Shown: piece by piece, positions 2,099 through 18,301 of the stretch
Numbering within the stretch: position 1 is the stretch's first letter
How the letters are laid out: every line of letters begins with the position of its first letter
Program-made: the position numbers and the translations under genes
Source of the DNA: Chthonomonadales bacterium
GTDB taxonomy: Bacteria; Armatimonadota; Chthonomonadetes; Chthonomonadales; CAJBBX01
NCBI GenBank assembly: GCA_027459625.1
Contig: DAIDHP010000002.1
Span: 209,279-273,278, forward strand
DNA: 64,000 nucleotides
Direction of reading: 5' to 3'
Notes under the pieces: model-generated
What the model was told of the DNA's origin: nothing
The model's database searches: none
The model's input: only the letters and a program-made list of their open reading frames with translations

Positions 2099-4123
2099 TT
2101 ATTTGCCTATGCAAAAAAGATCCTTTTCTCCTCGGATAATGATCTTATTATCCACATATGCGGGTGAAGAGTATGTCCGTTCACCAACGGGGTTCTTTCC
2201 CGTCTCATTAAATTGATCGCCTGCGGCAAGTATATGCATGACGCCTTTCGTATCCAACAGATAAATGCTGTTCCCGACTAGCGTGGGGGACGCTTTTATA
2301 TTATCTGCCATCTGATGGGTCCACAACTCCTTGCCTGTCATTGTGTCGTAACAGGTTATTTGTCCTTGGGTTGTAAAAAGATAAACGCGTTTTCCGTCAC
2401 TGAGAGGGCTTACGATATCCGGCAAACCATCCATTCCCATCCATGCGATACCGGTTTTGGTGATGTCGCCCTTTCCTGTTGGTCGAATCGCAACGATATT
2501 CGCACCCTGGTTGCTAACCACAACGAAGGGACCAGAGAAGATAGGCGACGGAGCCACTTCTCCGCCGAGACATTCGCAACGCCAAATCTCCTTCCCGGTG
2601 GCGGGATCGTATGAGATAACCCACGGGTTTCCTGCGGTGATGATTTCGGTTTTGCCATTAACCTTGATGGCTATAGGCGTCGCCCAGGAACTTCCGACCG
2701 GTCGCGGGGTTCGCCATAACTGTTTGCCCGTTTTGCCATCAAATGCCATGATCGAGGATTTCTTGTCGGTGGAATCGCTCCCTTGATCGGATTGCACAAT
2801 CAGTTTTCCCTCGCATAGCAGAAGAGACGCAGCCATGCCGTATTCGTTATCCGGTGTGCCGAGGAATTTTAGCCATAGCGGCTTACCTGTGAAGTCAAGA
2901 CAGACCAATTCTCCTGTTGGGAAAATGGCATACACTCGTTTACCGTCGGTCGCCATAGTTTGCGCCGCAAAACCGGTGTCATCCCCCACTTGAGGAACCG
3001 TGTTGCATCCCTTCACATGCACCTTGTATTGCCAGTTAATCGAACCGTAGCTAAGGGAATAGCAATAAACCAACCTCTGGGTTTTGTCTCCGCCCGTGAA
3101 AAAGATGTTATCTTTCCAGACGATCGGCGAACTCCAACCCGGCAGGGGAATGGGAGCTTTCCAGAGGATGTTTTGGTTCTGTGTGCCATCCCATTGCAGG
3201 GGGATGTCGCTTAGTGTGCATATTCCCGTTCCGCTCGGGCCCCGAAACATATTCCATTGGTTACTCCAACTCGAAGGGTATGCAGTGGCGATGGACGCGG
3301 CGGAGTCATTCGATGCGGCGGCGGATGGCGTTGGAACGCCGGTTTGCACATTGGGAGAGATCGGTGTGATCGCAGTGGGTGTGACGGGGCGTAACGCCGG
3401 CGTGGAACTTGCCGTGTTGGCTGCAGTGCCAAGCAATGGCGTGCCTGCGGCTGTGTTGGCGTTAGCGAGCGCATTCGATGGGGTTGGCGCGGTTGCTGCG
3501 GTAGGCGCCGTGGGAACCGTTGCCGGTGCTGAAGCTAATTGTTGAACCATTGGGGGTGGAGGTGATGCAGGCGCGGACGCCGTGTTGGAGACCGTAAAAA
3601 GATCGTTGTGAATGTAGGCGTAGGTTACATCATGTCTGGATAGAACGATCAATGATAGAAGAACGCCTCCCATAATTCCGCCCAAGACGTAAATGGATCT
3701 CCGACTTAAGGCGGGGTTCAACCATGGCTCCTTGGCAATATTCACATTGGGCAACGGCGTTGTTTTGTTACCTGATCGGAGATATTCCAAGCAAAGGAGG
3801 TAAACCACCAACGCTCCGATCAGAAGACACAACCCGTATTTCGCGATGAACTGGCTGCGAAAATAGTTTTTCCGGATGGTCACATCCAGATTGCGTATCT
3901 CCTTTTTAAGATTTTCATCCTTCGGGTTTTGTGAAAGTTGAACAAGGAGATTCTCCAGCTTGACCGGGTTATTGGGATCGTTAATTCGAGCGCGAATTGA
4001 GTTAGCCAAAAGGATGGCCAGCATGATAACGCAAAAAATCTCCATCGCTCTGGCGGTGCGATAGGCTGCGATCATCCATGGGTTATTTTGCGGGGAGTTA
4101 CTGTGGATAGGATCCGAAATCAT
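2099..4123 (-). CDS. membrane-anchored PQQ-like (BamB-like) beta-propeller repeat protein
   Basis: 674-aa ORF with three N-terminal hydrophobic helices and a long Ala/Pro/Thr/Ser low-complexity linker. Repeated W/G-rich propeller blades follow (FRGPSGTG..., ILWKAPIPLPGWSSPIVW, LWRTP, IWRCE, LWTHQ). Paralogous to 10670-12118. Confidence 0.7.
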   Translation of the reverse strand: MISDPIHSNSPQNNPWMIAAYRTARAMEIFCVIMLAILLANSIRARINDPNNPVKLENLLVQLSQNPKDENLKKEIRNLDVTIRKNYFRSQFIAKYGLCLLIGALVVYLLCLEYLRSGNKTTPLPNVNIAKEPWLNPALSRRSIYVLGGIMGGVLLSLIVLSRHDVTYAYIHNDLFTVSNTASAPASPPPPMVQQLASAPATVPTAPTAATAPTPSNALANANTAAGTPLLGTAANTASSTPALRPVTPTAITPISPNVQTGVPTPSAAASNDSAASIATAYPSSWSNQWNMFRGPSGTGICTLSDIPLQWDGTQNQNILWKAPIPLPGWSSPIVWKDNIFFTGGDKTQRLVYCYSLSYGSINWQYKVHVKGCNTVPQVGDDTGFAAQTMATDGKRVYAIFPTGELVCLDFTGKPLWLKFLGTPDNEYGMAASLLLCEGKLIVQSDQGSDSTDKKSSIMAFDGKTGKQLWRTPRPVGSSWATPIAIKVNGKTEIITAGNPWVISYDPATGKEIWRCECLGGEVAPSPIFSGPFVVVSNQGANIVAIRPTGKGDITKTGIAWMGMDGLPDIVSPLSDGKRVYLFTTQGQITCYDTMTGKELWTHQMADNIKASPTLVGNSIYLLDTKGVMHILAAGDQFNETGKNPVGERTYSSPAYVDNKIIIRGEKDLFCIGK

Positions 4124-4287
4124 ATGTCGCTGATAATCATTCCGTAATTGGGAATTAAACCGATCAAAAATATCCTTCCATAAGATGGATGAATCGATAT
4201 GAAAGCATACCGATTCATCGACATTGATAGTATATCACGCTTTGGTTTGCGGAGCCATAGGAATGCTTGGCTTTTCTCATGCGGCAA

Positions 4288-7200
4288 TTAATTCTTTAAC
4301 TCAAGCAATACTGGCTCCATCGTGTTCAGATGGATTGTTTTCACATATCCGGTAGGTGTGGTTGGTAGTATATTTCGACAGAAGACACTCTTTTTGCGCG
4401 ACCAGACCCTTATGGTCACCGGATTTTGAAGGTAATTGACTGCGTTTACCAATATCGACCCATGGTATTTTACCGTGAGCCATTCCACGCCCCACTGGTT
4501 CTTGCCGTTCATATCCGTGATTTTTACAGTTGGGTTGAGTTTTTCGGATGTCAGATAGGGGATGAGCCTTTTCCAGATATTGATATCCGTGGTCTGTTCT
4601 CTCGTGAATGCTATCGTATGGTATGCAAGGGCTTCACGGGGATGGTTGTAGTCATCGTATCCGAATATATCCTTACCGCCGAAAGCGAGGATATGACCTT
4701 TGTATTTATCAAGAGTTTGCAATGCGGCGTCCGAGATATACCGAATATCCGGAACGATCAGAAGCGGTGCGATTGGCATTTTCCCGTCCGCAAGGTCTCT
4801 TTCCGTGACGTAGCCTATTTTCATGCCTGTGAAATCAAGTGCAGTGTAAACCTTATTAAGGCAGTCGCTGAAGTCGTTTCCGTCCCACACTCTCGCCGCA
4901 GTGGTGAATAGAATTTGCACCTGCGGCTTCATATTCTGGAATTTGGCAACCTGCGGGGCTAGGCGCATTAAATCCAAACCGGTATCGCCTATCGCCTGGA
5001 CGCACGCCGGACGCTCCATTTCAAGCCCCCAGAAATCCGCTTTCGGATCGAACGTCTCCTCCCAGCACCACAACGTTGTCGCCCCCTCGCCATGAATTGC
5101 GCTCTGCCATAAGTCCGTGATAAGATGCTGAGGCGGCACTGGGTACTCGCCTCTATCCGGCATCACATGGTTCTCGCTGTTGAAGATGGGAGCGTCCAAG
5201 ACGGAATGCTGAAGATCGTAAGCCATGTTGTTCAACGTCCAACCGTCCGCCCATTCGCCGACTCCATTATTGTAGAAATCAGCGGAATCGTTGCCGTTGA
5301 TCTGGCTGAAATCGCCGAATAACTGCGCGTTCACGCCGTAACGCACCTCTGGCGCGCCAAGCATGGTCCATGTCATCGCTTTCGCATGAACGGGAATATT
5401 GGGCGCGATGGCATGGATCGTATCCGCCAGGAAGCGATGCCATCCGGCGAAAAACTCCTGATTGAAACGGACGAAATCATACCAGATAGGCGATGGAGGA
5501 GGTGGGTTGAGCGTGTTTTGAACCGGTATGGTGTCGAAATCCGCATAATTCGTTCCCCATAATTGGTTCAGTTCCCCAATACTTGCATAGTGTTTTTGCA
5601 GCCACACATGCCAATATAGCCGCTCATTTGGATCATTCGGGCTTTGGGCGTTTGTTGGCTCGTTGCTTAAGCAGAAACTATGCAGCGCAGGATAACCCTT
5701 TAGTTGAGGGATTACATACTGCAGGAATTTGCGCAGGATTTCCCTTCCCTCCGGAGCAAAAAGGGAATATTGCAGGAATCCCTCTTTTTGCACATTCATA
5801 TCCGGATATTTCTTCATCACCCATTCGGGCATGTAATGCGGACTGATCAGTATATTTACCGCCACATTCGCTTTCGCTGCCTGTTTTAATAACTGTATCA
5901 TATCCCTGACTGCGACATCGGACACAACTCCTTCCGACGGGAAAACTGCACTGGGACCAATCTCCACCTGAATAATATTCGCTCCGTAATCCGGCAGGAT
6001 ATTGAGATCCTTACGCACCTGGTCGAACGCCCCCCAGCCTGTGAAGTTGACCGGACGTACGGACGATTTTCTTTCTTCCGGCGCCTTTGTGCTTGCGTAG
6101 AACGTGGCTTTTTTGATGGATATCTTGCTTGTCACATAATACGGAGTGGGCGGATATCGCAATTTTCGAGCGAGCATTAATTGGAAAGTTCGCTTGGTTT
6201 TACGTTCCATCGGTGTCAACTGATCCAGCATCGATGTGGCGCGCTTAATCTGATTATGATCGAGCATCGCCAACGCGTATCCCGTAAGGTGTTGGAGAAT
6301 GGTGACCGCCACGCGGGGGTAGCTTACATCCAGCTTCATGCCTTCCGCCTTATGCATCATTTTCGAAAGGGAGGGAACGACGTTTTGTATGGATAAGAGC
6401 GCTTGTCTGGTTGCGTTGGCTGAGAACAACTCAATAACCGTATTGGAAGTGGCGCGATCGGCGCCTTCTCCATTGTTAATGCTGATTTGCATGTTCGCCC
6501 ATGCATGCGGAACGTGGACGGAATCTCCCTTAATGGAAACAAGGGATAAACCGGATGGCGCATCAATTCGCGATTTTTGTTTCACAACCTTGCCATCGTA
6601 CTTTAACATCGCTGTTAAAATGGCATATTTCATGGGTTTGGAAGTATAGAGATAGGACTGGAAAGTCCACGGCTGATCCGTGTTTATTGCGGGGATAGGG
6701 GTTGGGAGGAACAATGGATGATCAATTTGTACTGTGGGAGGATCGGGTGTAACGACATTTCCCTCCTCGATTTTAGGGTCGCGCAAAAGAAAACCGTTCG
6801 TCTGTCCGTCGGTGTTTATTCGAAAAGTGAATTCCGCCTCCGAAGGGCTCGGAGTGAATGTAAGGATGAACTGTTTCCATTTTCCGTCGGTGTTCGGAAA
6901 ATAGAGCCTGACCCTCCAATCATCCCCGCCGCCAATCCACGCTACGGTTGACTGAGAGATTTTCACCCAGCAACTCATTGTGTAAGGTGTGCCAGGGGTT
7001 AGATGGATGGGGTTTGTGGTCCACATGGTTCCGTATACGTTCGCTCCAAACGGTGTCGCGTTTTTGATTCGGAGCGATCTCATCCCGAACTCCGAGCGCG
7101 TATCCACCGGGGTGATACTGGATACGGTGTTGCGCGATTGCCATGTCCACCCATTCGGAACGCCATTCTCATCCAAATCCATGAATCCGTAATTGGGGAG

Positions 7201-7335
7201 CAGATTTGGATGAGTGTCGGCGTTTGCGATTGTTATCGGGTTGGGATTACCTTGATTTGACACCGCCGCAGCAGCGGAATGGACGAATAACGCGCTGAAT
7301 AGCAAAAGACCCAAGAATAATGAAATGGAGCGCAT
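4288..7335 (-). CDS. secreted GH42-like glycoside hydrolase (beta-galactosidase family fold) with N-terminal CBM4_9-like module
   Basis: Signal peptide MRSISLFLGLLLFSALFVHSAAA. N-terminal NLLPNYGFMD...NGWTW jelly-roll-like module. GH42-like catalytic region ...FCLSNEPTNAQ... followed by WLQKHYASIGELNQLWGTNYADFDTI. C-terminal trimerisation-like segment LLIVPDIRYISDAAL. Confidence 0.65.
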   Translation of the reverse strand: MRSISLFLGLLLFSALFVHSAAAAVSNQGNPNPITIANADTHPNLLPNYGFMDLDENGVPNGWTWQSRNTVSSITPVDTRSEFGMRSLRIKNATPFGANVYGTMWTTNPIHLTPGTPYTMSCWVKISQSTVAWIGGGDDWRVRLYFPNTDGKWKQFILTFTPSPSEAEFTFRINTDGQTNGFLLRDPKIEEGNVVTPDPPTVQIDHPLFLPTPIPAINTDQPWTFQSYLYTSKPMKYAILTAMLKYDGKVVKQKSRIDAPSGLSLVSIKGDSVHVPHAWANMQISINNGEGADRATSNTVIELFSANATRQALLSIQNVVPSLSKMMHKAEGMKLDVSYPRVAVTILQHLTGYALAMLDHNQIKRATSMLDQLTPMERKTKRTFQLMLARKLRYPPTPYYVTSKISIKKATFYASTKAPEERKSSVRPVNFTGWGAFDQVRKDLNILPDYGANIIQVEIGPSAVFPSEGVVSDVAVRDMIQLLKQAAKANVAVNILISPHYMPEWVMKKYPDMNVQKEGFLQYSLFAPEGREILRKFLQYVIPQLKGYPALHSFCLSNEPTNAQSPNDPNERLYWHVWLQKHYASIGELNQLWGTNYADFDTIPVQNTLNPPPPSPIWYDFVRFNQEFFAGWHRFLADTIHAIAPNIPVHAKAMTWTMLGAPEVRYGVNAQLFGDFSQINGNDSADFYNNGVGEWADGWTLNNMAYDLQHSVLDAPIFNSENHVMPDRGEYPVPPQHLITDLWQSAIHGEGATTLWCWEETFDPKADFWGLEMERPACVQAIGDTGLDLMRLAPQVAKFQNMKPQVQILFTTAARVWDGNDFSDCLNKVYTALDFTGMKIGYVTERDLADGKMPIAPLLIVPDIRYISDAALQTLDKYKGHILAFGGKDIFGYDDYNHPREALAYHTIAFTREQTTDINIWKRLIPYLTSEKLNPTVKITDMNGKNQWGVEWLTVKYHGSILVNAVNYLQNPVTIRVWSRKKSVFCRNILPTTPTGYVKTIHLNTMEPVLLELKN

Positions 7336-7432: not shown

Positions 7433-8725
7433 TTATTTGAGATTCCCTTTTATGTATACTCCCCCCTCCGCATATTTTTCATTTGCTTCCGAGGGGCAAT
7501 ACCCAAAACATCTGCCGCAAGCCAAGCAGGCGGCGGGATCGGCGTCATAATCATCCCATCTGTGTCGGGTGGTTATAAAAAACAGTTTCAATCCAAATAC
7601 TAACCCAAGCCATACTCCGAAGATGGTCGTATATAAGGTGTACGTTCGGCGTATCTTAGCCGCCTTGGCATATAGAAGATCATCGGGGATTTGGTTTGCA
7701 CGATGAGCCTGGCTCTCCAATGTCTCTCCATGCACCAAACCATGCCTCTCCTTCCAAACACGATCCGCAGTTTGCACCGTTATATCCACATGCGAAAGGA
7801 GAGGGCTAGCCAATCGCCCTGTTACGCCACCAAGGATCGCCAAAAACGGGATAAGCCAGAGCACTCTTGACAACACCGCTCGTGTGGATTTTCTGGACGG
7901 TCGAACCTCATCGGGAACCGGCATTCGCATGGCGTTGAATGGACAGGATTCCGCGCAAAGATGACATTGGATGCATTTTTCCGGAGCCACATGCACCTTC
8001 CATTTCGACCATGCCGCCGCCCACCGCAAGAGGACTCCGTAGGGACATAGATAACGGCAATAGGGCCTTCCGATGAATGTGGACAGGAAAAGGATTAATA
8101 TCCCGAAGGTTACCATCATCGCCCCGCCGCTCAGGCGGAAAAACGCCACGAAAGGGTCGTATTCGCAGATGATAAATACGGTTCCAGTCGCAGCGAATAG
8201 GGTTCCCAGACCTAGATAGATGTAGGGAATAACGCTAAGCGTCTCATCCATCCAAACAGGAACTCGTCTTGCTTTTTGCAAAATTAAATCCTGAGCAGCG
8301 CCAAGGGGGCATACCGCTGCGCAAAAAACCCTGCCGAAGAAAAGCGCGAAGAGGAGTGGCAAAATGAAGAAAACCCCGACGGACAGAGGAAGCGCGTAGC
8401 CGTTATGAAAAATCGCCATCGCTACGTTCTGAAGGCTTCCCACGCTGCAAACGCATCCGTGTCGATAAAATCCGAAATACAAGAGAGAGAACAGGGAGAT
8501 CAGTCTCACCTCTCTTCGGCTACGCTTGTAAAGAATGAAGTAGGCGGTCATTAGCATGAGGACCGCCAACATCACCATGTCAATGCGTGTAAACAACTCC
8601 GCCCGAGGAGGGGGATTTATCGTGACGGGATATTGGTAGCCGGTGGTGAAATCCGGCGGAGGGTTCTTTTGGGGAGGCGTTGTTATCTGAAGCAAAAAAA
8701 ACGGAGGGGTGAATTTTTGAAACAT
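7433..8725 (-). CDS. integral-membrane polyferredoxin, NapH/MauN-like 4Fe-4S binding protein
   Basis: Multiple TM helices. Two CxxxCP motifs typical of NapH-type proteins (CAAVCPLGAAQD, CRYLCPYGVL). Ferredoxin motifs CIQCHLCAESCP and CLACGRCFGYCP. Starts 7 nt downstream of the preceding ferredoxin gene. Confidence 0.7.
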   Translation of the reverse strand: MFQKFTPPFFLLQITTPPQKNPPPDFTTGYQYPVTINPPPRAELFTRIDMVMLAVLMLMTAYFILYKRSRREVRLISLFSLLYFGFYRHGCVCSVGSLQNVAMAIFHNGYALPLSVGVFFILPLLFALFFGRVFCAAVCPLGAAQDLILQKARRVPVWMDETLSVIPYIYLGLGTLFAATGTVFIICEYDPFVAFFRLSGGAMMVTFGILILFLSTFIGRPYCRYLCPYGVLLRWAAAWSKWKVHVAPEKCIQCHLCAESCPFNAMRMPVPDEVRPSRKSTRAVLSRVLWLIPFLAILGGVTGRLASPLLSHVDITVQTADRVWKERHGLVHGETLESQAHRANQIPDDLLYAKAAKIRRTYTLYTTIFGVWLGLVFGLKLFFITTRHRWDDYDADPAACLACGRCFGYCPSEANEKYAEGGVYIKGNLK

Positions 8726-8732
8726 GAAATGA

Positions 8733-9305
8733 TTAACCGTCCTGTTTTATCTTGGATTTAAGCAGATACGGTTTGCCGGCGGGAACTCGCACGATCGCCT
8801 GCGCCGGACAGACTTCCGCTATGGAGCACTGGTTGCAGTTCAGGCATCGATCATGACGAATCTGCATGAACAGGGAACCGTTTCCAAACGCATCGCATCC
8901 CTTGGAGCATTTCGCGCATCCAATACAGAGGTTTTCATCGATGACATACTGGAAATATGGGTTCTCGACATACGAACGTTGGATCGCGAATGTCGGGCAT
9001 TGCACATTTTCCGCTTCAATGGTATTGCCCACTCTTTCGGGACGCAACATTCCGGAGCACAAATTGCAATACCCGCACATAGCGAAAGCGTGCATGCACT
9101 TGACAGTCGATTGATCCAGAACGCAGGATGTGGCGCACAGTCCGCAATTCGTGCATTTGTAGGGATCGATCTGCCAGACCGTGTCTTCGGCATGGGAACT
9201 GGCGGCAAGGGCGCCGATGGCACCGCTGGCGATAATCAAACCCCCTGTGCGGATCCCGTCCGCGATAAACTCTCGCCTGGTTTTTTTATTTTCGGCGGCT
9301 GCCAT
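8733..9305 (-). CDS. Tat-exported poly-[4Fe-4S] ferredoxin, NapG-like
   Basis: I place the start at the internal ATG at 9305 (MAAAENKKTRREFIADGIRTGGLIIASGAIGALAASSHA), which gives a twin-arginine signal. The longer track ORF (to 9467) would overlap the upstream small ORF by 182 nt. Cys motifs: CTNCGLCATSC, CGYCNLCSG, CIGCAKCSKGC, CLNCNQCSIAEVCP. Confidence 0.7.
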   Translation of the reverse strand: MAAAENKKTRREFIADGIRTGGLIIASGAIGALAASSHAEDTVWQIDPYKCTNCGLCATSCVLDQSTVKCMHAFAMCGYCNLCSGMLRPERVGNTIEAENVQCPTFAIQRSYVENPYFQYVIDENLCIGCAKCSKGCDAFGNGSLFMQIRHDRCLNCNQCSIAEVCPAQAIVRVPAGKPYLLKSKIKQDG

Positions 9306-9516
9306 CTCTTTTGATCCTTTCCGCTTGACGTGTCTCCAAAGCTCGTGGAAGGTCGCAATCGCCGTAATAACCGCACTGCGTGCAGATAGGAAGTTCGGGG
9401 CATCCGCGTGATTTCCGAAGAACCATCGCTCCGATTCCTCCAACCATGGCGGCTGCCATCGTTCCACGTATAATACCCATAAGGAATTCCCGTCTGTTTT
9501 TTACGTTATTTTTCAT
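9286..9516 (-). CDS. small Tat-signal Cys-rich protein (76 aa), function unknown
   Basis: MKNNVKNRREFLMGIIRGTMAAAMVGG is a twin-arginine motif plus hydrophobic region. The mature part carries CPELPICTQCGYYGDC (4 Cys). It overlaps the ferredoxin start by 20 nt, consistent with translational coupling. Confidence 0.45.
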   Translation of the reverse strand: MKNNVKNRREFLMGIIRGTMAAAMVGGIGAMVLRKSRGCPELPICTQCGYYGDCDLPRALETRQAERIKRDGSRRK

Positions 9517-9567
9517 ACCACGCCTAAGTCTTTCAAATTTAGTCCTGCCAGGAAAGTTGTATCTATG

Positions 9568-10515
9568 TCAATTATCTTTGGCGTATACGTTCAGTTGCTT
9601 TGTGTAATTGTTAGCGATATATACGTTTCCCTCCGCATCGGCTGCAATGGGTATGTCATCGGTGTTTTGCGAAAAAGCCTTAGGACCCAAAATCACGCTA
9701 TCCAATGACCCGTTCGGCTTAAGCACCTTCACCCTTGGCAGCCCTTTTTCCGAAGTTACGATATCGCCGGACGGTAGCAGGGCGATACGAATGGGGTTGC
9801 AGCATCCGCAGAATTTATCAATCGAGTTCCCTCCCCCCCCGAACGATGAAATTAATCTTCCATTCGGAGTGAATGTCTCCACCTTATGGCGTCCGGGATT
9901 GTTTACATACAAGTTGCCATTCCTTTGGATCGCAATGTCCAAGTGTGGGCTGGGTAATATGAACCCTTTTATATCCTTAGCGGGATCTGTGCGCCCAATC
10001 GTTCCAACTATTTTTCCGCGAATATCATATTTCCATACGAGCTTGTTTCCCGCATCCGCTGCATAAATATATGACTTATTCGCAGCAAGGTTTATTATTT
10101 GTGCATTGATCGCAGGCGGACCCCAATTTACGATTTGGTTTGCATATCGCGAGAGAACTTCAATATGATTCCCAACGCCCATATATATTTTATCATCCCG
10201 GAGCGCAACGCACATAGGAGGCTCGGTAGTCGGGATCACACTCGGCTGTTGAGTCTTCCGTGTGAAGATCAGCAGGCCCTTATCGCATGCCGCATATATT
10301 CTTCCCTTCCCATCAACCGTGATATCGTTAACTCCAGAGGATGGCAACGGGTAAGAGGCGACCACCTTCCAGGTGAGCCACTTTGCGGGGACGGTTCTTA
10401 TGGCTTGGAATGCATCCAGAGCGGTGGTTGATTTGGGGGCGATTTTCCATAAGACGATCCCCCACAATCCAAAGAGGACAGCAACTATGCCGAGTAATAT
10501 CAACCGCCATTTCAT
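9568..10515 (-). CDS. membrane-anchored NHL-repeat six-bladed beta-propeller protein
   Basis: N-terminal TM helix MKWRLILLGIVAVLFGLWGIVLW. Repeated blade pattern of the NHL type (GRIYAACDKGLLIF, YIYAADAGNKLVWKYD, GNLYVNNPGRHKVETF, GNVYIANNYTKQLNVY). Unusual CGCCNP motif. Confidence 0.6.
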   Translation of the reverse strand: MKWRLILLGIVAVLFGLWGIVLWKIAPKSTTALDAFQAIRTVPAKWLTWKVVASYPLPSSGVNDITVDGKGRIYAACDKGLLIFTRKTQQPSVIPTTEPPMCVALRDDKIYMGVGNHIEVLSRYANQIVNWGPPAINAQIINLAANKSYIYAADAGNKLVWKYDIRGKIVGTIGRTDPAKDIKGFILPSPHLDIAIQRNGNLYVNNPGRHKVETFTPNGRLISSFGGGGNSIDKFCGCCNPIRIALLPSGDIVTSEKGLPRVKVLKPNGSLDSVILGPKAFSQNTDDIPIAADAEGNVYIANNYTKQLNVYAKDN

Positions 10516-10669
10516 ATCATTTCACGGAATGCGAAAAACATCACATTAAAACCCCCGTAACAAGGCATGCGCGATGCGTTGAGCATTGTCCTATCTATTA
10601 TCTTCGAAAAATCCAAATTGTCAAGAAAAAACATAATTTATCGAGTTATGTTGCAATTCAAACGGCTGC

Positions 10670-12118
10670 TTAGTGTAAGCGCATATCCAAACAGACCATT
10701 CTGTTCAGGTCCCTTGCGATTAGCAAGCCACCCGCGATTGCCATTGGACCCCAGGAATCCGGACCGCTCAAGATTTGAATATCCCCCATTTCGTGATATG
10801 CTGTCGGCGTGGCTTGCACCATTGTGAGCACCCCCGAGTCATTCATGATAAATATCAGTCCGTCGGCTATTAGATATGGTCCAAGCCCGAAACGTCGAGT
10901 GGCTCCGCTGGTCCATTGGGGCTGCCCGTTAAGATTAAGGCACACCAACTCCCCTCCGGATCGCACTCCGTAAATATATCCCTTGTATAAAATTGGTGTT
11001 TGCTGATCCGATCCGAAAACGTCGGGAGTTAATCGATAAAGCGTCTGTACAGAGAATTTGCCACTCTGCTCGGTCATTTGCATCATCGCACTGCCCGCAC
11101 CGTAGCCCCCCGTGAAGAAAATACGTCCATCGGGCAGGCAGATGGGGGTGGGGACGGTGGCTGTGCTCACCTTCCAGTCTGTGGTTTGCCAGAGTATGGA
11201 GCCATCCTTCGCCGAGACGCCAGCCGCGCCGCCGCTGCCGCAATAGACATAAATGGATTGATTGTGGAAGGTGGCTTTCGCTATCGAGGAATGCGTCATC
11301 TGCCACCCCATCGGATTCGGTGTCCGCCAGACGATTTTCCCTGTCGCAAGGTTCACCGCGATCATCAGGACATTTCCCGCTGGAGCGAGGATGACATTAT
11401 TCCCGTCGATCAGAGGGCATTGTCCCGCGTACCATTGCGGAACAGTGGTTCCAAATTGTTTGACCAAGTCCATCTGCCAGTAAATTTTCCCCGTATCGGC
11501 ATCCGCGCATAACACATGACATTGTGGTCCAAGGGAAACCACGTATTTCCCTGAAACCGCCGGAATGGTTCGGCTCATTCCGTGATTGCGCTTGATAGGG
11601 TCGGGGTAGGATTGTCGCCATATCTCCTGACCGTTTGCGAGGGAAAGACACCGAAGGGCATCCTCCTGGTGCGCTTCGTCGTAGTCCAGGACATACACCT
11701 TGCCATGCTCGATTGCCGCCGAGGCGTATCCCTCCCCTAAATTTAGCGACCACAGGAGATGAGGCGGATTTTTTTGCCAGTCAGAGGATAACGCCACTTT
11801 TTCAGGGCTGATATCATCGTGGTTTGGACCGCGAAAGCAGGGCCAGGAGCCTGGCAGGTTCGTAACATTCACTCCGGTGAATTTATAGGATGTTTGCTGA
11901 GTTGGAGCCGTTGTCGCCGTGGCGGACGGCGTCGAGGGTGTGGGAACGGCGGTTTGCATCACGTTTTGGTTTTGAATAGCCTTTGCGGGCCCCACGTTCA
12001 GCGGACGTTCAGGGAAATTGTTTATCCTCCGTTCATGCATCAGAAGCCCCAAAAGTATGGCGACGCAAGTCAGCGTGACGCCTATGGGTATTCCCCAGGA
12101 GATGATCTTATTTTTCAT
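10670..12118 (-). CDS. membrane-anchored PQQ-like (BamB-like) beta-propeller repeat protein
   Basis: N-terminal TM helix and a Thr/Pro/Ser linker. Then WPCFRGPNHDD..., LLWSLNLGEGYASAAIEHGKVYVLD, IWRQS, IYWQMD, IVWRTP, ILWQTT propeller blades. Paralog of 2099-4123. Confidence 0.7.
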   Translation of the reverse strand: MKNKIISWGIPIGVTLTCVAILLGLLMHERRINNFPERPLNVGPAKAIQNQNVMQTAVPTPSTPSATATTAPTQQTSYKFTGVNVTNLPGSWPCFRGPNHDDISPEKVALSSDWQKNPPHLLWSLNLGEGYASAAIEHGKVYVLDYDEAHQEDALRCLSLANGQEIWRQSYPDPIKRNHGMSRTIPAVSGKYVVSLGPQCHVLCADADTGKIYWQMDLVKQFGTTVPQWYAGQCPLIDGNNVILAPAGNVLMIAVNLATGKIVWRTPNPMGWQMTHSSIAKATFHNQSIYVYCGSGGAAGVSAKDGSILWQTTDWKVSTATVPTPICLPDGRIFFTGGYGAGSAMMQMTEQSGKFSVQTLYRLTPDVFGSDQQTPILYKGYIYGVRSGGELVCLNLNGQPQWTSGATRRFGLGPYLIADGLIFIMNDSGVLTMVQATPTAYHEMGDIQILSGPDSWGPMAIAGGLLIARDLNRMVCLDMRLH

Positions 12119-12186
12119 GTATTAGTCGATGTGAAACCTTGGGTGCTTAGGAGATGTTCCACGCTTGGCGAGGGTTCCTATCTTAA

Positions 12187-12195
12187 TGATATAAT
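12187..12195 (+). promoter_or_regulatory. extended -10 promoter element (TGaTATAAT) upstream of the terpenoid-type operon
   Basis: tgatataat at 12187-12195 sits in the 194-nt divergent intergenic region, about 118 nt upstream of the 12313 start. The -35 region (ggcgag at 17-nt spacing) is weak, as is usual for extended -10 promoters. Confidence 0.3.
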
Positions 12196-12312
12196 AAAAG
12201 CAAAGAACAAATTGCCAAAATGATTATTTTGCACTGTAATTACCAGCCTTCCATCGAACCATGTCAATGTTAGGCATGATTCACTGCTCATCATTCAAAG
12301 GACATAAGCGAT

Positions 12313-13140
12313 ATGTCAATTAACATTATACTGTCCAGAAGCGGAGAAGTGGATTCTCTCCCCCAAGAAAATCAACTTATTCGCAAACTTTCGGGACAAT
12401 TCGGAGTGGCGGTTACCGTGACCCCGCATCTGTATCATGTATCCGAAAACGATTCCATTTGGATGGAACTTGCAAAAATGGAGGGGGATATCGTATTCAT
12501 CTCCTGGTTGCATCCCCGCCCTGCGGAGTGGTTGCTGCGTAAACATAACGTGGGGGAACAAGCTCTGATCTGCTATCATTTCTCGGATATCCCATCCGAT
12601 CCGGCATGGAGTGTCCTCCCCGAGGCAAACTCCGCTGCGCTCGCCAAGCCTAAAGTGTTGCAAACCCAGCAACTTGTTCGATGGTATCCGGTCGTGGACA
12701 GGTCGAGATGCACCAACTGCCTGAACTGCCTTCAGTTTTGCCTGTTCGGAGTTCACGAAACGGACGAAAACGGCGAGGTCAAAGTTGCAAACCCGGATCA
12801 GTGCAAGCAGGGGTGTCCTGCGTGCAGTCGTATCTGTCCGAATGGGGCGATTATCTTTCCTCTCTATGCAAAGGATCCTTCAATTGCCGGGGCTCCAGGA
12901 TTGGTAATGCAACCGGACAAACAAGCCAGGCATATGTATTACACCAGAACGAAAGCCAAATGTCCAAAATGCGGACAGGAGGGTTCGTTCCTAATCCCTT
13001 CCCCGGGCGCTCCAACTTGCGAGGAGTGCACCAGACCTATTCGCATCAGTAAGCCTGAACCCTCAACGTCAAATATCGTGATGGACGAGATGGACGAATT
13101 GATAGACCAAGTGGATTCAAAATACGGGAGACGCAATTGA
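12313..13140 (+). CDS. 2x[4Fe-4S] ferredoxin-domain protein with unknown N-terminal domain and C-terminal zinc-ribbon
   Basis: CTNCLNCLQFC (CxxCxxCxxxC) and CKQGCPACSRICP motifs. C-terminal CPKCG...(15 aa)...CEEC. The N-terminal ~130 aa (…DIVFISWLHPRPAEWLLRKHNV…) has no motif I can assign. Its stop overlaps the next gene's TTG start. Confidence 0.7.
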   Translation: MSINIILSRSGEVDSLPQENQLIRKLSGQFGVAVTVTPHLYHVSENDSIWMELAKMEGDIVFISWLHPRPAEWLLRKHNVGEQALICYHFSDIPSDPAWSVLPEANSAALAKPKVLQTQQLVRWYPVVDRSRCTNCLNCLQFCLFGVHETDENGEVKVANPDQCKQGCPACSRICPNGAIIFPLYAKDPSIAGAPGLVMQPDKQARHMYYTRTKAKCPKCGQEGSFLIPSPGAPTCEECTRPIRISKPEPSTSNIVMDEMDELIDQVDSKYGRRN

Positions 13141-14711
13141 GTGGAAAGGGCAGCAGAATCCTGCTAACCGCGGATCGCACACTTATAGCCGATTACGATC
13201 TGCTTTTCGACGGAATGCTAGCGGCCAGTCAAACCACTACCACACCCTCATTTTTGATGAAGCACCTCCTGATGAAACGCCCGCGCTCGGCAGGCGGCGC
13301 TGCGAAGTTTGCACCCCTTGGACTTAGGCGAATTGAGGCGGCTCTTCTCTCGGATGGATTTACCGAGGGGGAAGTGGTGGTTGCCGATCCGGATTCGCTC
13401 TCGGATTTCGTTGGGAAGGATACAGCCATTATTGCCGTCTCCTCCGGCGAACCTGCCGGATTTGGCATGAATAGCACCACCATGTGCGGTATTGCCGGAG
13501 GCTCCATTTACCCTTACCGAATGTTTCGCCAATTGATGGGGAATATTCGTCGATTGAAGGATGCGTATCCCCATGTGAAAGTGGTGCTTGGAGGTCCCGG
13601 AGCTTGGCAGATGCGAGAGAAAATACGCTCCCGGGAGCTTCCCATTGACTATCTTGTCACGGGTTACGCCGAGGGGAACGTATCCTCCATCTTTCATAGG
13701 ATTCTTTCCGGAGACGAAATCCCGACCATTATCGATGGGGAATCGGTTTCCGCAGAACAAATTCCTACCATACGGCGCCCTAGCACCATGGGGGTGGTGG
13801 AGATAAGCCGAGGATGCGGTTTGGGATGCGCTTTTTGCACCATCCGGAAAACCGCGATGATTCATTTGCCTCATGAGACGATTATCAAGGATGTGCGTAC
13901 GAACGTGGAGATGGGAAAGCCCAATATCGCCATCCTTAGCGAAGATTTTTTCCGTTACGGTGCAAACGGTATGCAAGTGAATCCGGATAGTCCCATACGC
14001 CTCTTGGAAAACGTTAGAGAGGTGGAGGGGTTAAAGCTGATCCAACTCGATCATTGCAATGTGCTGAGCGTGTCCCAGTATTCCGATGACCATTTGCGGC
14101 AAATACGCCGGTTGCTAACGCAGGGGCAGCGGCATGAATACCCTTGGGTGAATATCGGCGTTGAAACCGCCAGTGGAACGCTATTAAGGAATAACGGGGG
14201 CGGAGCCAAGATGGGGCGAGGGGGAGCAGACGCTTGGGACGAATTTTCCGAGAATCAAGTGCGCAGGCTGGTACGCGCAGGATTCTTTCCTCTGGTAAGT
14301 CTTATCATTGGTTTGCCTTACGAGACGGAACACGATATCCAAATGACGATGGAATGGGTGGAGCGTCTTTCGAATGAGCGTGTCACGGTGTTTCCGGTTC
14401 TTTACGCCCCCGTGGATGGCTCACGACCTCCGAACCCGAATGATCTCCGTCGCTCTCATTGGGATTTAATTAAGCGTTGCTACGATTTGAATTTTTATTG
14501 GACTCCCAAAATGTACTGGGACAATCAGTCCGGAGCAGGCGTCGGTTTGGGCAAGAGATTGCTCATGCAAGGAATGGGTAGAGGCCAGGTGCTTGAGTGG
14601 AGCCTTTTACTCAGTATGAGGAGGTTACGCTCGCCGAAAAGCTTTGCAAATCGGGTCGCATCCAATGAGAAGGAATCCGAAGATGCACCGATGGGAAAAT
14701 CATGTCATTGA
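13137..14711 (+). CDS. B12-binding-domain radical SAM protein
   Basis: Radical-SAM cluster motif EISRGCGLGCAFCTIRK (CxxxCxxC) lies behind an N-terminal Rossmann-like domain (AIIAVSSGEP...VKVVLGGPGAW), as in class B radical-SAM enzymes. Overlaps its neighbours by 4 nt and 10 nt. Confidence 0.8.
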   Translation: MSGKGSRILLTADRTLIADYDLLFDGMLAASQTTTTPSFLMKHLLMKRPRSAGGAAKFAPLGLRRIEAALLSDGFTEGEVVVADPDSLSDFVGKDTAIIAVSSGEPAGFGMNSTTMCGIAGGSIYPYRMFRQLMGNIRRLKDAYPHVKVVLGGPGAWQMREKIRSRELPIDYLVTGYAEGNVSSIFHRILSGDEIPTIIDGESVSAEQIPTIRRPSTMGVVEISRGCGLGCAFCTIRKTAMIHLPHETIIKDVRTNVEMGKPNIAILSEDFFRYGANGMQVNPDSPIRLLENVREVEGLKLIQLDHCNVLSVSQYSDDHLRQIRRLLTQGQRHEYPWVNIGVETASGTLLRNNGGGAKMGRGGADAWDEFSENQVRRLVRAGFFPLVSLIIGLPYETEHDIQMTMEWVERLSNERVTVFPVLYAPVDGSRPPNPNDLRRSHWDLIKRCYDLNFYWTPKMYWDNQSGAGVGLGKRLLMQGMGRGQVLEWSLLLSMRRLRSPKSFANRVASNEKESEDAPMGKSCH

Positions 14712-16465
14712 GCTCCATGTCGAACCCTGAGATAGATGAAGCGATGGTTCAGTTGAAGAGCATCCTTGCCGAGGAGATTATTGATGGTTCCCATTGGGAG
14801 GGACATTTATCCGCGTCAGCCTTATCCAATGCAACCGCTCTTTCCGCTCTCTCCTTTTCAAACGCCCCCGAGGATGGACAAAGTTTGAATGCAGGTTTGG
14901 AATGGCTCTTTGACCATCAGAATCAGGATGGGGGATGGGGGGATACGACCGATAGTCCCTCCAATCTCTCCACCACTCTGCTCGTGAACGCCGCATTTCG
15001 TCTTAATGAAAAAAGATTGACGGAATTGAAACAACTAACCGTTGACAGTGCATTGCAGGGGATGAATGCGTGGTTGAAAAAGGCTTTGGCTAACCATAAC
15101 GGTGATGTCGCAAAGGGCGTTCGGGAGTTATATGGAGAGGATCGAACCTTTTCAGCGCCGATACTGATGAACTGCGCTCTTGCGGGGTTGGTGGATTGGA
15201 GGTGCTTGCCGGATTTGCCTTACGAGTTGGCGGCAGCACCGCAGGGTTTGTTTAAATTCCTGAAACTAGGGGTGGTTAGTTACGCTCTCCCAGCATTGAT
15301 CGCCATCGGAATGTTGGTGGAACAAAGAAAACCCACTGCGAATCCGCTTGCAGGAGCTTTGCGGCAGGTGTGCATTCCGAAGGTTATGGAGAAATTGCAG
15401 GAGATTCAGCCCGCCCATGGTGGTTTTCTTGATGCTACTCCCTTAACCTCCTTTGTCGCGATGGCTTTGGCAAATCGTTTCGACCCTCAGCATCCCGTAA
15501 CTCAAAAGTGTTTCGCTTTTCTTCGTTGGTCCATGCGTTCGGATGGAAGTTGGCCCATAGATACGAACCTCTCCGTTTGGATCACCTCCCATATTTTCGG
15601 CCTGTTCGAATGGATCGGATTTCCCTCGGATATCCATCCACTCCAAATCAAGGAATGGCTATATGGACGGCAACAACTCGTCCGTCATCCCTACACGGGA
15701 GCGGATCCGGGCGGTTGGGGATGGAATCATCATCCGGGTAGTGTTCCCGACGCTGACGACACATCTGCTGTGCTAATAGCGCTCTATCGTCTTCAAGGAG
15801 AGGCGAGGGAATGGAATGGGTTGAAATGGTTGTTGCGTCTTCAAAATGATGATGGCGGATGGCCGACCTTTTGCAAAGGCTGGAGCGGATTGCCTTTCGA
15901 CCGAAGTTGTCCGGATATCACCGCTCACGCCTTGCGAGCCATCTCCCCGTATGCCAAGGTGGCGTCCAATATGAATGTGTCAAAAAGCATTCGAAAAGGT
16001 TTGGAATGGCTTAAGAAGAATCAATGCGAGGATGGCTCCTGGGTTCCATTATGGTTCGGTAATCAGTACGCCCCGCATGGCGAAAACAGAGTGGTGGGGG
16101 CGAGCCGAGTTCTATTGGCGCTGGGGGAGTTGAATGAACAGCAGGCGGAGAGCGAAAAAGGGGTTCATTATCTTCTGAATGTTCAAAACGATGATGGAGG
16201 ATGGGGCGGCGGAAAAGGAATATCCTCCACCATGGAGGAGACTTCGTTATCCGTGATCGCTCTTTTGGCGTGCGGCCATATTCATGAGGCGGAGAGAGGT
16301 GTTGAGTTTTTGCTGAGAGGATGCCTTAGTCGTGCTTACGAAAATCCTGCACCAATAGGCCTCTATTTCACAAGCCTTTGGTATTCCGAAAAGCTGTATC
16401 CGATTATTTGGACTTTGGAAGCTTTGGGGCGGTTCAAACTGCAAAAAAAAATGATCCATGGCTGA
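14702..16465 (+). CDS. class II terpene cyclase (squalene-hopene cyclase / prenyltransferase alpha-alpha toroid family)
   Basis: Five QW-type repeats (QNQDGGWGD, MRSDGSWP, LQNDDGGWPT, NQCEDGSWVP, VQNDDGGWGGG). DxDD catalytic-acid motif in GSVPDADDTSAVLIALYRL. 587 aa. Confidence 0.75.
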   Translation: MSLSSMSNPEIDEAMVQLKSILAEEIIDGSHWEGHLSASALSNATALSALSFSNAPEDGQSLNAGLEWLFDHQNQDGGWGDTTDSPSNLSTTLLVNAAFRLNEKRLTELKQLTVDSALQGMNAWLKKALANHNGDVAKGVRELYGEDRTFSAPILMNCALAGLVDWRCLPDLPYELAAAPQGLFKFLKLGVVSYALPALIAIGMLVEQRKPTANPLAGALRQVCIPKVMEKLQEIQPAHGGFLDATPLTSFVAMALANRFDPQHPVTQKCFAFLRWSMRSDGSWPIDTNLSVWITSHIFGLFEWIGFPSDIHPLQIKEWLYGRQQLVRHPYTGADPGGWGWNHHPGSVPDADDTSAVLIALYRLQGEAREWNGLKWLLRLQNDDGGWPTFCKGWSGLPFDRSCPDITAHALRAISPYAKVASNMNVSKSIRKGLEWLKKNQCEDGSWVPLWFGNQYAPHGENRVVGASRVLLALGELNEQQAESEKGVHYLLNVQNDDGGWGGGKGISSTMEETSLSVIALLACGHIHEAERGVEFLLRGCLSRAYENPAPIGLYFTSLWYSEKLYPIIWTLEALGRFKLQKKMIHG

Positions 16466-16510
16466 GGGTGGATATTTCAAGCGTCAGTTTTAGCGTATTT
16501 GTGATACCTG

Positions 16511-16519
16511 TGTTATAAT
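16511..16519 (+). promoter_or_regulatory. possible internal extended -10 promoter (TGtTATAAT)
   Basis: tgttataat at 16511-16519 in the 83-nt gap between the cyclase and the DUF116/polyprenyl-synthase-like gene. No good -35. Confidence 0.25.
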
Positions 16520-16548
16520 GAAAAAAACAATTAGCCGCTCCACCGTAA

Positions 16549-18273: not shown

Positions 18274-18301
18274 GGCGATCGGATAGCGTCTTGAACGGAG
18301 G

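Follow-up and report, generated by a model that had tools for sequence, protein, structure and literature searches.

A gene block conserved across more than ten phyla joins distant NapG/NapH relatives to beta-propeller and flavoprotein genes and may encode an envelope redox system

Five consecutive minus-strand genes lie at positions 7433 to 12118 of a 64,000-nucleotide stretch of DNA from a Chthonomonadales bacterium (assembly GCA_027459625.1, contig DAIDHP010000002.1, positions 209,279 to 273,278), which as a whole is called the window here. They encode two beta-propeller proteins, a small cysteine-rich protein and a ferredoxin that both carry twin-arginine translocation (Tat) signals, and a polytopic polyferredoxin. 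A preliminary description of this DNA had read the two iron-sulfur (Fe-S) proteins as a NapG/NapH-type quinol dehydrogenase with no recognisable terminal reductase beside it. With which partners, then, would this Fe-S pair exchange electrons? Comparison of related loci showed that the five genes belong to a block of eight genes with a fixed order. We judge the chances to be about even that these eight genes encode a single conserved redox system, of which the five supply the periplasmic and membrane half and which would lead from an NAD(P)H flavoenzyme to the propellers.

The conserved gene order

An alignment of the window polyferredoxin with 24 homologues (alignment A1) was used to scan one genome per species, and at least 584 stretches of species-representative genomes, from more than ten phyla, were found to encode a relative of this protein. 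The best 80 of these stretches were compared after the window proteins had been mapped on them by tblastn; single loci are given with L numbers. Counts for full loci refer to the 33 loci with complete 10-kb flanks, and the size of the flanks limits the counts of accessory blocks given further below. The gene order recurred in 80 of 80 loci, wherever a flank exists, and always on one strand: PQQ482, NHL protein, small protein, Tat ferredoxin, polyferredoxin, PQQ674 and NuoEF, with the GltD-like flavoprotein next in nearly all full loci. These features are, in that order:

10670-12118, minus strand: PQQ482, a PQQ_2-type propeller of 482 aa (Pfam PQQ_2, 96.6 bits); in 32 of 33 full loci
9568-10515, minus strand: NHL315, an NHL propeller of 315 aa with NHL and SGL Pfam matches; in 33 of 33 full loci
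9286-9516, minus strand: small twin-arginine Cys protein of 76 aa, with no Pfam or NCBIfam match
8733-9305, minus strand: Tat ferredoxin of 190 aa from the ATG giving MAAAENKKTRREF, matching Fer4 families; in 33 of 33 full loci
7433-8725, minus strand: polytopic polyferredoxin of 430 aa (Fer4_5, 60 bits); in 33 of 33 full loci
2099-4123, minus strand: PQQ674, the second PQQ_2-type propeller (PQQ_2, 89.5 bits); in 33 of 33 full loci, directly downstream of the polyferredoxin gene
1-2046, minus strand: NuoE-NuoF fusion (NuoEF), its C-terminus cut by the window edge (2Fe-2S_thioredx, 159 bits; Complex1_51K, 142 bits); in 32 of 33 full loci
GltD-like flavoprotein, after NuoEF in 31 of 33 full loci; to judge from the orthologous loci, its gene in this genome would lie to the left of window position 1

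The order was thus kept at near 100% across more than ten phyla, so that a loss of synteny, which had been named as grounds for refuting the earlier reading, was not seen; Pfam-annotated gene calls from independent assemblies gave a matching order. A link of the five genes to the second propeller and the diaphorase had earlier been called pure speculation; it proved instead to be the best-supported association of the locus (33 and 32 of the 33 full loci). In the window, a GH42-like/CBM4_9 glycoside hydrolase gene (4288-7335, minus strand; 1015 aa; Pfam Glyco_hydro_42 and CBM_4_9) stands between the polyferredoxin and PQQ674 genes. No homologue of it was found in any of the 85 related loci, and elsewhere the PQQ674 gene directly follows the polyferredoxin gene; the GH42-like gene is therefore a lineage-specific insertion outside the conserved system.

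Carriers among the best 80 loci were Armatimonadota, Planctomycetota (Pirellulales, Phycisphaerae, Sedimentisphaerales), Verrucomicrobiota, Kiritimatiellae, Lentisphaeria/Victivallales, Omnitrophota, Aminicenantes, Latescibacterota, KSB1, Aegiribacteria and Bacteroidota, and they included one cultured species, Chthonomonas calidirosea (L016). The complete block was also seen on contigs of metagenome-assembled genomes labelled as Bacillota, Eubacteriales and Bifidobacteriaceae (L022, L051 and L055); these bins may be contaminated, because of their gene content and the diderm-type signals of the proteins.

The inventory, order and motifs of the five minus-strand genes were exactly as first described, including the overlap of 20 nt between the small protein and ferredoxin genes (9286-9305) and the gap of 7 nt between the ferredoxin and polyferredoxin genes (8726-8732). 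The open reading frame (ORF) of the ferredoxin could have a longer form, up to a GTG at 9467. All five are considered real genes rather than chance ORFs because each has many homologues and the gene order recurs. Homologue clusters numbered 4824 for the polyferredoxin (E<=1e-10), 5386 for PQQ482 (E<=1e-20) and 1138 for the NHL protein (E<=1e-10). In the existing annotation of this genome, four of the five genes are called identically; the small gene is missed, or begun at Met13 as a 64-aa product without RREFL. Public proteins hold only the 64-aa form and no entry for the 76-aa form, and annotations in general probably miss the small gene or give it a wrong start. A scan for promoters and terminators gave no signal over the shuffled background.

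The iron-sulfur proteins and the cytoplasmic flavoproteins

The polyferredoxin falls, by its sequence, into the NapH/NosR/RdhC (Fer4_5) superfamily. Hydropathy, together with counts of positive charges in 85 aligned sequences (the window protein and 84 orthologues), predicts seven transmembrane helices, with the N-terminus outside and the C-terminus inside. Two CX3CP motifs (C135/C139P and C223/C227P) and two CxxCxxCxxxCP motifs (251-262 and 400-411, with C251/254/257/261 and C400/403/406/410) were invariant among 25 homologues, as were a GCxC pair (C91/C93) and C187 within CxYDPF. The predicted topology puts the CX3CP and ferredoxin motifs, two of each, on the positive inner side, GCxC and C187 at the outer face and a conserved N-terminal segment, FPPPEF..GY..P, on the outer side; many orthologues start in a signal-peptide-like manner. 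The two ferredoxin motifs are split by a hairpin of two helices (283-301 and 366-384) and a 64-aa outer loop.

A conserved basic stretch, RRRR, comes after the last helix, and the C-terminus is therefore placed inside. Dual Sec/Tat insertion of this helix, raised by the IRRTY that precedes helix 7 in the window protein, was considered and rejected, as the motif is not conserved: the residues before the helix vary (IRAEF, LRDRF, VQQQF and others).

The NapH-type four-helix module with two CX3CP motifs is present in the polyferredoxin. Its invariant FCAAVCP and YCRYLCP align with FCSWVCP and WCGHICP of Escherichia coli NapH, to which hhalign gave a probability of 95%, over residues 120-275 only. 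The general plan of NapH, with about 290 aa, four helices and two adjacent C-terminal 4Fe-4S motifs, was not matched by the 430 aa and about seven helices found here, and E. coli NapH has no GCxC, no C187 and no motif-splitting hairpin. Scores stayed far under the cut-offs of both NapH models (52.9 vs 213 bits for TIGR02163; 46.1 vs 234 bits for NF007013) and of the NosR model (48.5 vs 1000 bits). A profile search with the polyferredoxin alignment met generic 4Fe-4S motifs only and no solved structure for the membrane part. The Fer4_5 membrane module with its two CX3CP motifs is also present in NosR and RdhC (PceC), which have been proposed to pass electrons to a periplasmic enzyme (PMC5928378). 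Unlike NosR, NirI and RdhC, the polyferredoxin has no periplasmic FMN-binding domain, and FMN_bind was not matched among 15 Pfam families.

The Tat ferredoxin starts with RREF, a Gly/Ala-rich stretch and an SHA cleavage motif ahead of the mature part, and the arginine pair (RR10-11) is invariant. Its 16 invariant cysteines (C51/54/57/61, C77/80/83...C103P, C127/130/133/137 and C154/157/160...C166P) are enough for four [4Fe-4S] clusters, and a further one, Cys70, is nearly invariant (>=90%). The protein thus has the twin-arginine signal and the four Cys motifs that mark NapG/MauM, and hhalign aligned its whole length with E. coli NapG at a probability of 92%. The NapG model NF007012 was missed (23.3 vs 269 bits), and the nearest sequence in the PDB was 9mqx_E, the polyferredoxin of a tungsten oxidoreductase (E=4e-7).

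The small protein consists of NRREFL (RRxFL), a Gly/Ala-rich stretch, a basic stretch and C-x5-C-x2-C-x5-C; orthologues often have AxA followed by KRRR, and usually LPxA after the Cys motif. About 66 of 77 loci have it, and the Cys spacing was invariant in all 47 that were scored. Among 1.84 billion representatives, 94 clusters were matched at E<=1e-3, nearly all of them stand-alone proteins of 61-113 aa. Given four cysteines in a Tat substrate, the protein probably carries one Fe-S or metal centre and is probably exported by Tat. In three loci of Sedimentisphaerales/Pirellulales, it forms an in-frame fusion with the mature ferredoxin (L018, about 3975-4586; L024, about 1261-1872; L039, about 9258-9869), with the join ...C-YRPQ-VWQIDP..., and its Tat signal replaces that of the ferredoxin and serves both. 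The gene fusion shows that the small protein and the ferredoxin work as a single unit, both on one side of the membrane.

The mau clusters for methylamine dehydrogenase and the qhp clusters for quinohaemoprotein amine dehydrogenase have a propeller subunit and a small Cys-rich exported subunit, and include NapG/H-like MauM/MauN (mau) or a radical SAM protein (qhp). The locus resembles them in combining propellers with a small Cys-rich exported protein. It is unlike them in that it has no MauG-type or haem genes, and its radical SAM protein is B12-binding and terpenoid-linked. A small subunit with a tryptophan tryptophylquinone or cysteine tryptophylquinone (MauA, QhpC) was rejected for the 76-aa protein: the Cys-rich part has four Cys only and no conserved Trp in 49 orthologues.

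Does the Fe-S pair then serve a conventional reductase? Homologues of NapA, NapB and NapC were found neither within 10 kb in 35 loci nor in the first 20 kb of the window, and the same holds for ORFs with two or more CxxCH motifs. No napA, nosZ or mau structural genes were met with the polyferredoxin gene, whose neighbours were the propellers and NuoEF/GltD. The earlier observation that no canonical terminal reductase lies nearby therefore stands, no molybdo- or multihaem enzyme having been found, and the propellers are the only plausible periplasmic partners, as had been proposed.

The reading of the Fe-S pair as a NapG/NapH-type quinol dehydrogenase was not supported in its original form, in view of the missed cut-offs for NapH, NapG and NosR (52.9/213, 23.3/269 and 48.5/1000 bits) and the extra features of the membrane protein. 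On these scores, the two proteins are distant relatives of NapG and of the NapH/NosR/RdhC superfamily that lie outside each named family. Like the NapGH pair of E. coli and Wolinella succinogenes, and their kin MauM/MauN, they consist of a Tat ferredoxin with four Cys motifs beside a polytopic protein with two CX3CP and two CxxCxxCxxxC(P) motifs. They differ from it in scores far under the family cut-offs, in seven predicted helices instead of four, in the N-terminal periplasmic segment, in the extra small Tat protein, in the lack of NapA/B/C, and in having propellers and a Bfu-type flavoprotein as conserved partners.

A true NapGH-type quinol dehydrogenase with its terminal enzyme encoded elsewhere, next to unrelated or structural propellers and an independent NuoEF/GltD transhydrogenase, is nevertheless an explanation that has to be weighed. 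It agrees with the clear though distant homology to NapH and NapG found by hhalign, and with the 4-TM/CX3CP module common to NapH, NosR and RdhC, which has been proposed to oxidise quinol (PMC5928378). However, the cut-offs were missed four- to twenty-fold with an architecture unlike NapH, and no NapA-like or multihaem gene was seen in the 35 loci. The order of the propellers and NuoEF/GltD, fixed in 31-33 of 33 loci and across more than ten phyla, would be odd for unrelated genes. In addition, many of the carriers come from lineages of fermentative anaerobes (Omnitrophota, Aminicenantes, Sedimentisphaerales, Kiritimatiellae). We regard this explanation as decidedly improbable.

The cytoplasmic genes of the block point to another electron partner. 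NuoEF joins a 2Fe-2S thioredoxin-like domain to an FMN/NADH-binding 51-kDa domain, and its nearest PDB entries were 9bov_B, 9n5u_B (NfnB) and 8oh5_B (StnB), at E=1e-139 to 1e-146. For the GltD-like protein of L003, the nearest were 9bov_A, 8oh5_C (StnC) and 9n5u_A (NfnA), at E=1e-101 to 1e-105. To judge from these relatives, NuoEF is a Bfu/Stn-type flavoprotein. Both Stn and NfnABC belong to the Bfu family; they are electron-bifurcating transhydrogenases that act between NADH and NADPH and depend on ferredoxin (PMC7483475, PMC10482914, PMC12018979). Their domain set of 2Fe-2S thioredoxin-like, FMN-binding 51-kDa, Fer2_4, Fer4_20 and FAD/NAD(P) Rossmann-fold domains is present, and these enzymes, with their NuoE, NuoF and GltD-like NADPH modules, are the closest solved relatives. 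StnC has 1172 aa with an FdhF-like C-terminal half (PMC10482914), whereas the GltD-like protein has 527-543 aa, its match covers StnC residues 6-316 only, and the FdhF-like half is missing. A second difference is that NuoE and NuoF are fused here (about 790 aa), and a third that the Stn/NfnABC genes stand alone, whereas these share an operon with genes for membrane and periplasmic proteins. As the nearest relatives of NuoEF and GltD are Stn/NfnABC, NAD(P)H or ferredoxin-level electrons are a likelier partner for the Fe-S proteins than quinol.

The dual Sec/Tat-inserted NapH-NapG fusion polyferredoxins described by Tooke et al. in 2017 (PMC5449189) share with the present locus the NapH-like membrane block, the NapG-like periplasmic block and an occurrence in little-studied phyla, including Latescibacteria. 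Here, unlike in the fusions, each part has its own gene, there is no conserved Arg pair ahead of the last helix, a single Cys motif comes after that helix, and the ferredoxin uses its own Tat signal or, in three loci, that of the small protein. Full-text searches of the literature found no description of this gene set, and only background on RdhC/NapH/NosR, on Sec/Tat polyferredoxins and on Stn. To our knowledge, no known system joins a Bfu-type module, a NapGH-like wire with a mini-subunit and three propellers without a conventional catalytic subunit.

The propellers and the direction of electron flow

A hydrophobic N-terminal anchor was present in both PQQ482 and NHL315, in agreement with their first description as membrane-anchored propellers. 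PQQ482 is the block's most conserved propeller and the candidate catalytic end-point. Its orthologues were 50-64% identical across phyla, a conservation far above what a scaffold would need. The N-terminal transmembrane helix was found in almost all of them; the signal of the L060 orthologue looks cleavable, and a lipobox-like motif was seen in 1 of 56. The AlphaFold2 (AF2) model (pLDDT 87) has eight blades. Invariant motifs were NHGMSRT (178-184), WYAGQCP (229-235), TPNP..W.MTHSS (266-278), Q.TP (372-375), FGLGP (410-414) and WGP (456-458), and by the secondary-structure positions in the AF2 model they fall in successive inter-blade loops on one face. Such loops are the usual place of the active site in propellers.

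The best Foldseek matches of PQQ482 were BamB (TM-score 0.77) and tetrathionate hydrolase, and alcohol dehydrogenases dependent on pyrroloquinoline quinone (PQQ) ranked at about 45, with TM-scores of 0.51-0.56. The PQQ-dehydrogenase model TIGR03075 (20.5 vs 480 bits) and two BamB models (48.6 vs 423 and 41.6 vs 285 bits) were missed. A site for copper or another metal formed by H179, C234, M274 and H276 is only an idea; invariant His residues numbered two only. NosZ is itself a beta-propeller, and NosGH belongs to clade II nos clusters; unlike NosZ, the propellers of this locus do not have the many His ligands of the CuZ site.

The AF2 model of NHL315 (pLDDT 94) has six blades, and the NHL domains of TRIM2, TRIM71 and Brat were the top Foldseek matches (TM-score 0.70). 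Invariant residues were F235, G237, C238, C239, N240, P241, E256, K257, R261 and K263, with a vicinal Cys-Cys pair in GCCNP. The protein passed the cut-off of the Pfam SGL (gluconolactonase) family (27.4 vs 26.3 bits), and JGI labels homologues as 'sugar lactone lactonase YvrE'. In orthologues of Chthonomonadales-like lineages, a Tat motif and a lipobox replace the membrane anchor (L005 at 6192-7196, L008, L010 and L013), and in other orthologues a lipobox alone does so. From these signals the NHL protein is taken to be periplasmic and, in some lineages, exported already folded, there possibly as a cofactor-bearing lipoprotein. A formylglycine site at C239-N-P-I-R, suggested by a match to the CxPxR of sulfatases, was rejected, as R243 is not conserved.

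PQQ674 has three N-terminal transmembrane helices (29-47, 97-115 and 143-161), a Pro/Ala/Thr-rich linker and a propeller, with R77, D80 and R84 conserved in the first loop. With 21% identity (E=5e-10), it is distantly paralogous to PQQ482, and both are structurally nearest to BamB. CaaX-type prenylation of PQQ674 was considered on account of its terminal CIGK, the Rce1-like gene at 22241-22957 and the prenyl genes nearby; it was rejected, the Cys being a repeat-position residue in the last strand of the propeller, in the periplasmic domain. Foldseek on both AF2 models revealed no enzyme with a transferable active site, and no cofactor site was identified in the propellers.

In the preferred reading of the locus, the cytoplasmic Stn/NfnABC-like (Bfu-type) pair of NuoE-NuoF and the GltD-like protein would handle NADPH and NADH and trade low-potential electrons with the cytoplasmic 2x[4Fe-4S] domain of the polyferredoxin. 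Electrons would cross the membrane from the inner-face CX3CP sites to the outer-face GCxC/C187 cysteines, then pass to the Tat-exported four-cluster ferredoxin and the one-centre 76-aa mini-subunit, and so reach the membrane-tethered propellers, among which PQQ482 would be the likeliest catalytic site. The NHL protein with its vicinal Cys-Cys pair would act as a partner or as a redox-active end-point, and PQQ674 would tether the assembly. It may be hypothesised that the three outer-face cysteines of the polyferredoxin, together with Cys70 of the ferredoxin, would form a four-ligand site between the subunits. Outward flow is judged the more likely direction, in which electrons at the level of NAD(P)H or ferredoxin would reduce a periplasmic or outer-leaflet substrate at PQQ482, at the NHL Cys-Cys pair, or at both.

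This reading is preferred because of the synteny, the tight gene coupling, the fusion of the small protein with the ferredoxin, the periplasmic signals and the topology, and also because of the Stn/Nfn-like cytoplasmic partner, the conserved propeller loops, the lack of an alternative catalytic subunit and a docking precedent, namely the cytoplasmic Fe-S protein NapF, which docks on NapH according to a passage of PMC5928378 that cites Kern and Simon.

Several points weigh against it. We infer physical assembly, electron path, direction and chemistry from sequence, and what speaks for the assembly and the path is gene order and homology. The top Foldseek relatives are non-enzymatic (BamB, TRIM NHL), and no cofactor site was identified in PQQ482 or the NHL protein, so the propellers could be scaffolds. 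The membrane domain may oxidise quinol, by analogy with the proposal for NapH, and the Bfu-type pair may be an ordinary transhydrogenase co-transcribed by chance. Of the full loci, only about half have the GT4/ABC block described below within 10 kb, and only about 15% the radical SAM/cyclase block. Finally, no result constrains the direction of electron flow.

Inward flow was weighed as well. Here PQQ482 would be a periplasmic dehydrogenase for a sugar, an aldehyde or another low-potential donor, with an SGL/NHL lactonase-type partner. Electrons would move inward by way of the Tat ferredoxin and the polyferredoxin, and the Stn-like module would reduce NAD(P)+ and/or ferredoxin by confurcation, giving a charge-separating redox loop. 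The SGL match of the NHL protein and the YvrE-type names of its homologues fit this proposal, as does the eight-bladed fold of PQQ482, which is that of PQQ dehydrogenases. It also fits that the carriers degrade glycans, and that the window and other loci are rich in glycoside hydrolase genes. Bfu-type enzymes are reversible (PMC10482914), and periplasmic oxidation combined with cytoplasmic reduction would conserve energy. However, the PQQ-dehydrogenase model was missed widely and the best structural matches were to BamB, GCCNP in the NHL protein does not correspond to a lactonase motif, no hydride-accepting cofactor was identified, and nothing in the data fixes this direction either. Inward flow is considered unlikely.

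Linked accessory genes and the wider window

On the other side of the propeller operon, the window carries a second operon in divergent orientation. Its features are:

12119-12312, no strand: intergenic region from which the propeller operon and the ferredoxin/radical-SAM operon diverge
12313-13140, plus strand: ferredoxin-like protein with a C-terminal CPKC...CEEC ribbon (Pfam)
13137-14711, plus strand: B12-binding radical SAM protein (Pfam)
14702-16465, plus strand: class II terpene-cyclase-like (squalene-hopene-cyclase-like) protein (Pfam), with DADDTS (DxDD) read from the sequence
16549-18273, plus strand: DUF116::polyprenyl synthase fusion (Pfam), with DDxxD read from the sequence
18302-19591, plus strand: GT4 glycosyltransferase (Pfam)

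By its gene content, the operon at 12313-19591 looks like an uncharacterised pathway for a cyclic-terpenoid glycolipid. The divergent arrangement with the core block was also found in the Armatimonadota loci L001, L003, L007, L009, L011, L043, L057, L058 and L084. In Planctomycetota (L064, L072 and L085), the radical-SAM/cyclase operon lies downstream of the core block, and in Victivallales (L081) it is partly present.

A second accessory block centres on the glycosyltransferase. A GT4 homologue was found within 10 kb in 13 of 33 full loci, and there always in the order GT4, ABC, FtsX. This block lies upstream of the core genes in Planctomycetota and downstream in Kiritimatiellae, Bacteroidota, Latescibacterota, Aminicenantes, Lentisphaeria and Armatimonadota. 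In L033, from Pirellulales, at least 15 genes lie on one strand with overlapping ends; the order along the strand is PQQ_2, GT4, ABC ATPase, a 1106-aa MacB_PCD/FtsX permease, the eight core genes, a 290-aa protein without assigned function and two PQQ_2 propellers. Genes for GT4, ABC, a large MacB_PCD double-FtsX permease and extra PQQ_2 propellers (up to three) are co-oriented with the core block in L033 (31-6579 and 17008-20478) and in L003 (15241-17299). The linkage of the accessory blocks to the core is suggestive, not universal, and weakly hints at a glycosylated isoprenoid lipid or another envelope component as the substrate.

These linked genes bear on a further explanation, in which the locus encodes a machine for envelope biogenesis or maintenance. 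The propellers would be BamB-like chaperones or scaffolds working with the MacB-type ABC, GT4 and isoprenoid genes, and the Fe-S chain would power thiol chemistry, like that of DsbD or ferredoxin:thioredoxin reductase, on the NHL Cys-Cys pair or on client proteins. PQQ482 and PQQ674 are indeed nearest to BamB in structure, and the vicinal Cys-Cys pair of the periplasmic NHL protein is invariant. The GT4, ABC and MacB_PCD/FtsX genes accompany about half of the full loci, the radical-SAM/cyclase/polyprenyl-synthase block is found in several phyla, and the function of CX3CP, as a disulfide or in a cluster, is unsettled in the literature (PMC5928378). On the other hand, a five-cluster Fe-S wire with a bifurcating flavoprotein far exceeds the need of known thiol-reducing systems, the BamB models were missed, the propellers have anchors in the inner membrane instead of being lipoproteins of the outer membrane, and the accessory blocks are not universally adjacent. 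This explanation is regarded as improbable.

Returning to the eight-gene redox system, a wider form of that proposal can be put forward tentatively, and more doubtfully than the system itself. The locus could encode a widespread envelope redox machine, in which a possibly bifurcating Stn/NfnABC-type module is wired, through the seven-helix polyferredoxin and the two Tat Fe-S proteins, to propellers that form a new class of redox enzyme in the periplasm; its substrate could be the linked glycosylated isoprenoid, moved by the MacB-type transporter. The catalytic end has a substantial chance of being new in kind. If the proposal is true, low-potential electrons from pyridine nucleotides or ferredoxin would cross the membrane without quinones, haems or molybdopterin, and the electron chain would end at propellers that have no recognisable cofactor. 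In that case, Bfu-type bifurcating enzymes would also have a new output module, and a new role would fall to the NapH/NosR/RdhC membrane module. The block occurs in hundreds of species and comprises 8 conserved genes, or up to 17 with the accessory blocks, which makes it a sizeable blind spot. What is known of energy metabolism and envelope biology in the carrier phyla, which abound in soils, sediments and guts, has mostly been read from genomes.

Several other features of the window lie farther from the core block. Two minus-strand ORFs of 570 aa (20350-22062) and 952 aa (31503-34361) had no Pfam match. The gene for an Rce1-like CPBP protease (22241-22957) and one for a DUF1559/N-methyl pseudopilin-like protein (24329-24970) are also on the minus strand. 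At 55741-63308, on the plus strand, a gene for a 2038-aa hybrid sensor kinase (GAF, many PAS, HisKA/HATPase, two receivers and Hpt) is followed by an overlapping receiver-PAS-GGDEF gene. The source organism is a specialised glycan degrader. The region 28830-50342 is dense in glycoside hydrolases and related proteins, with GH78-like and GH106 rhamnosidases, a melibiase, a GH63/MGH1-like protein with PA14, DUF2961 and WbsX-like proteins and a BD-FAE esterase.

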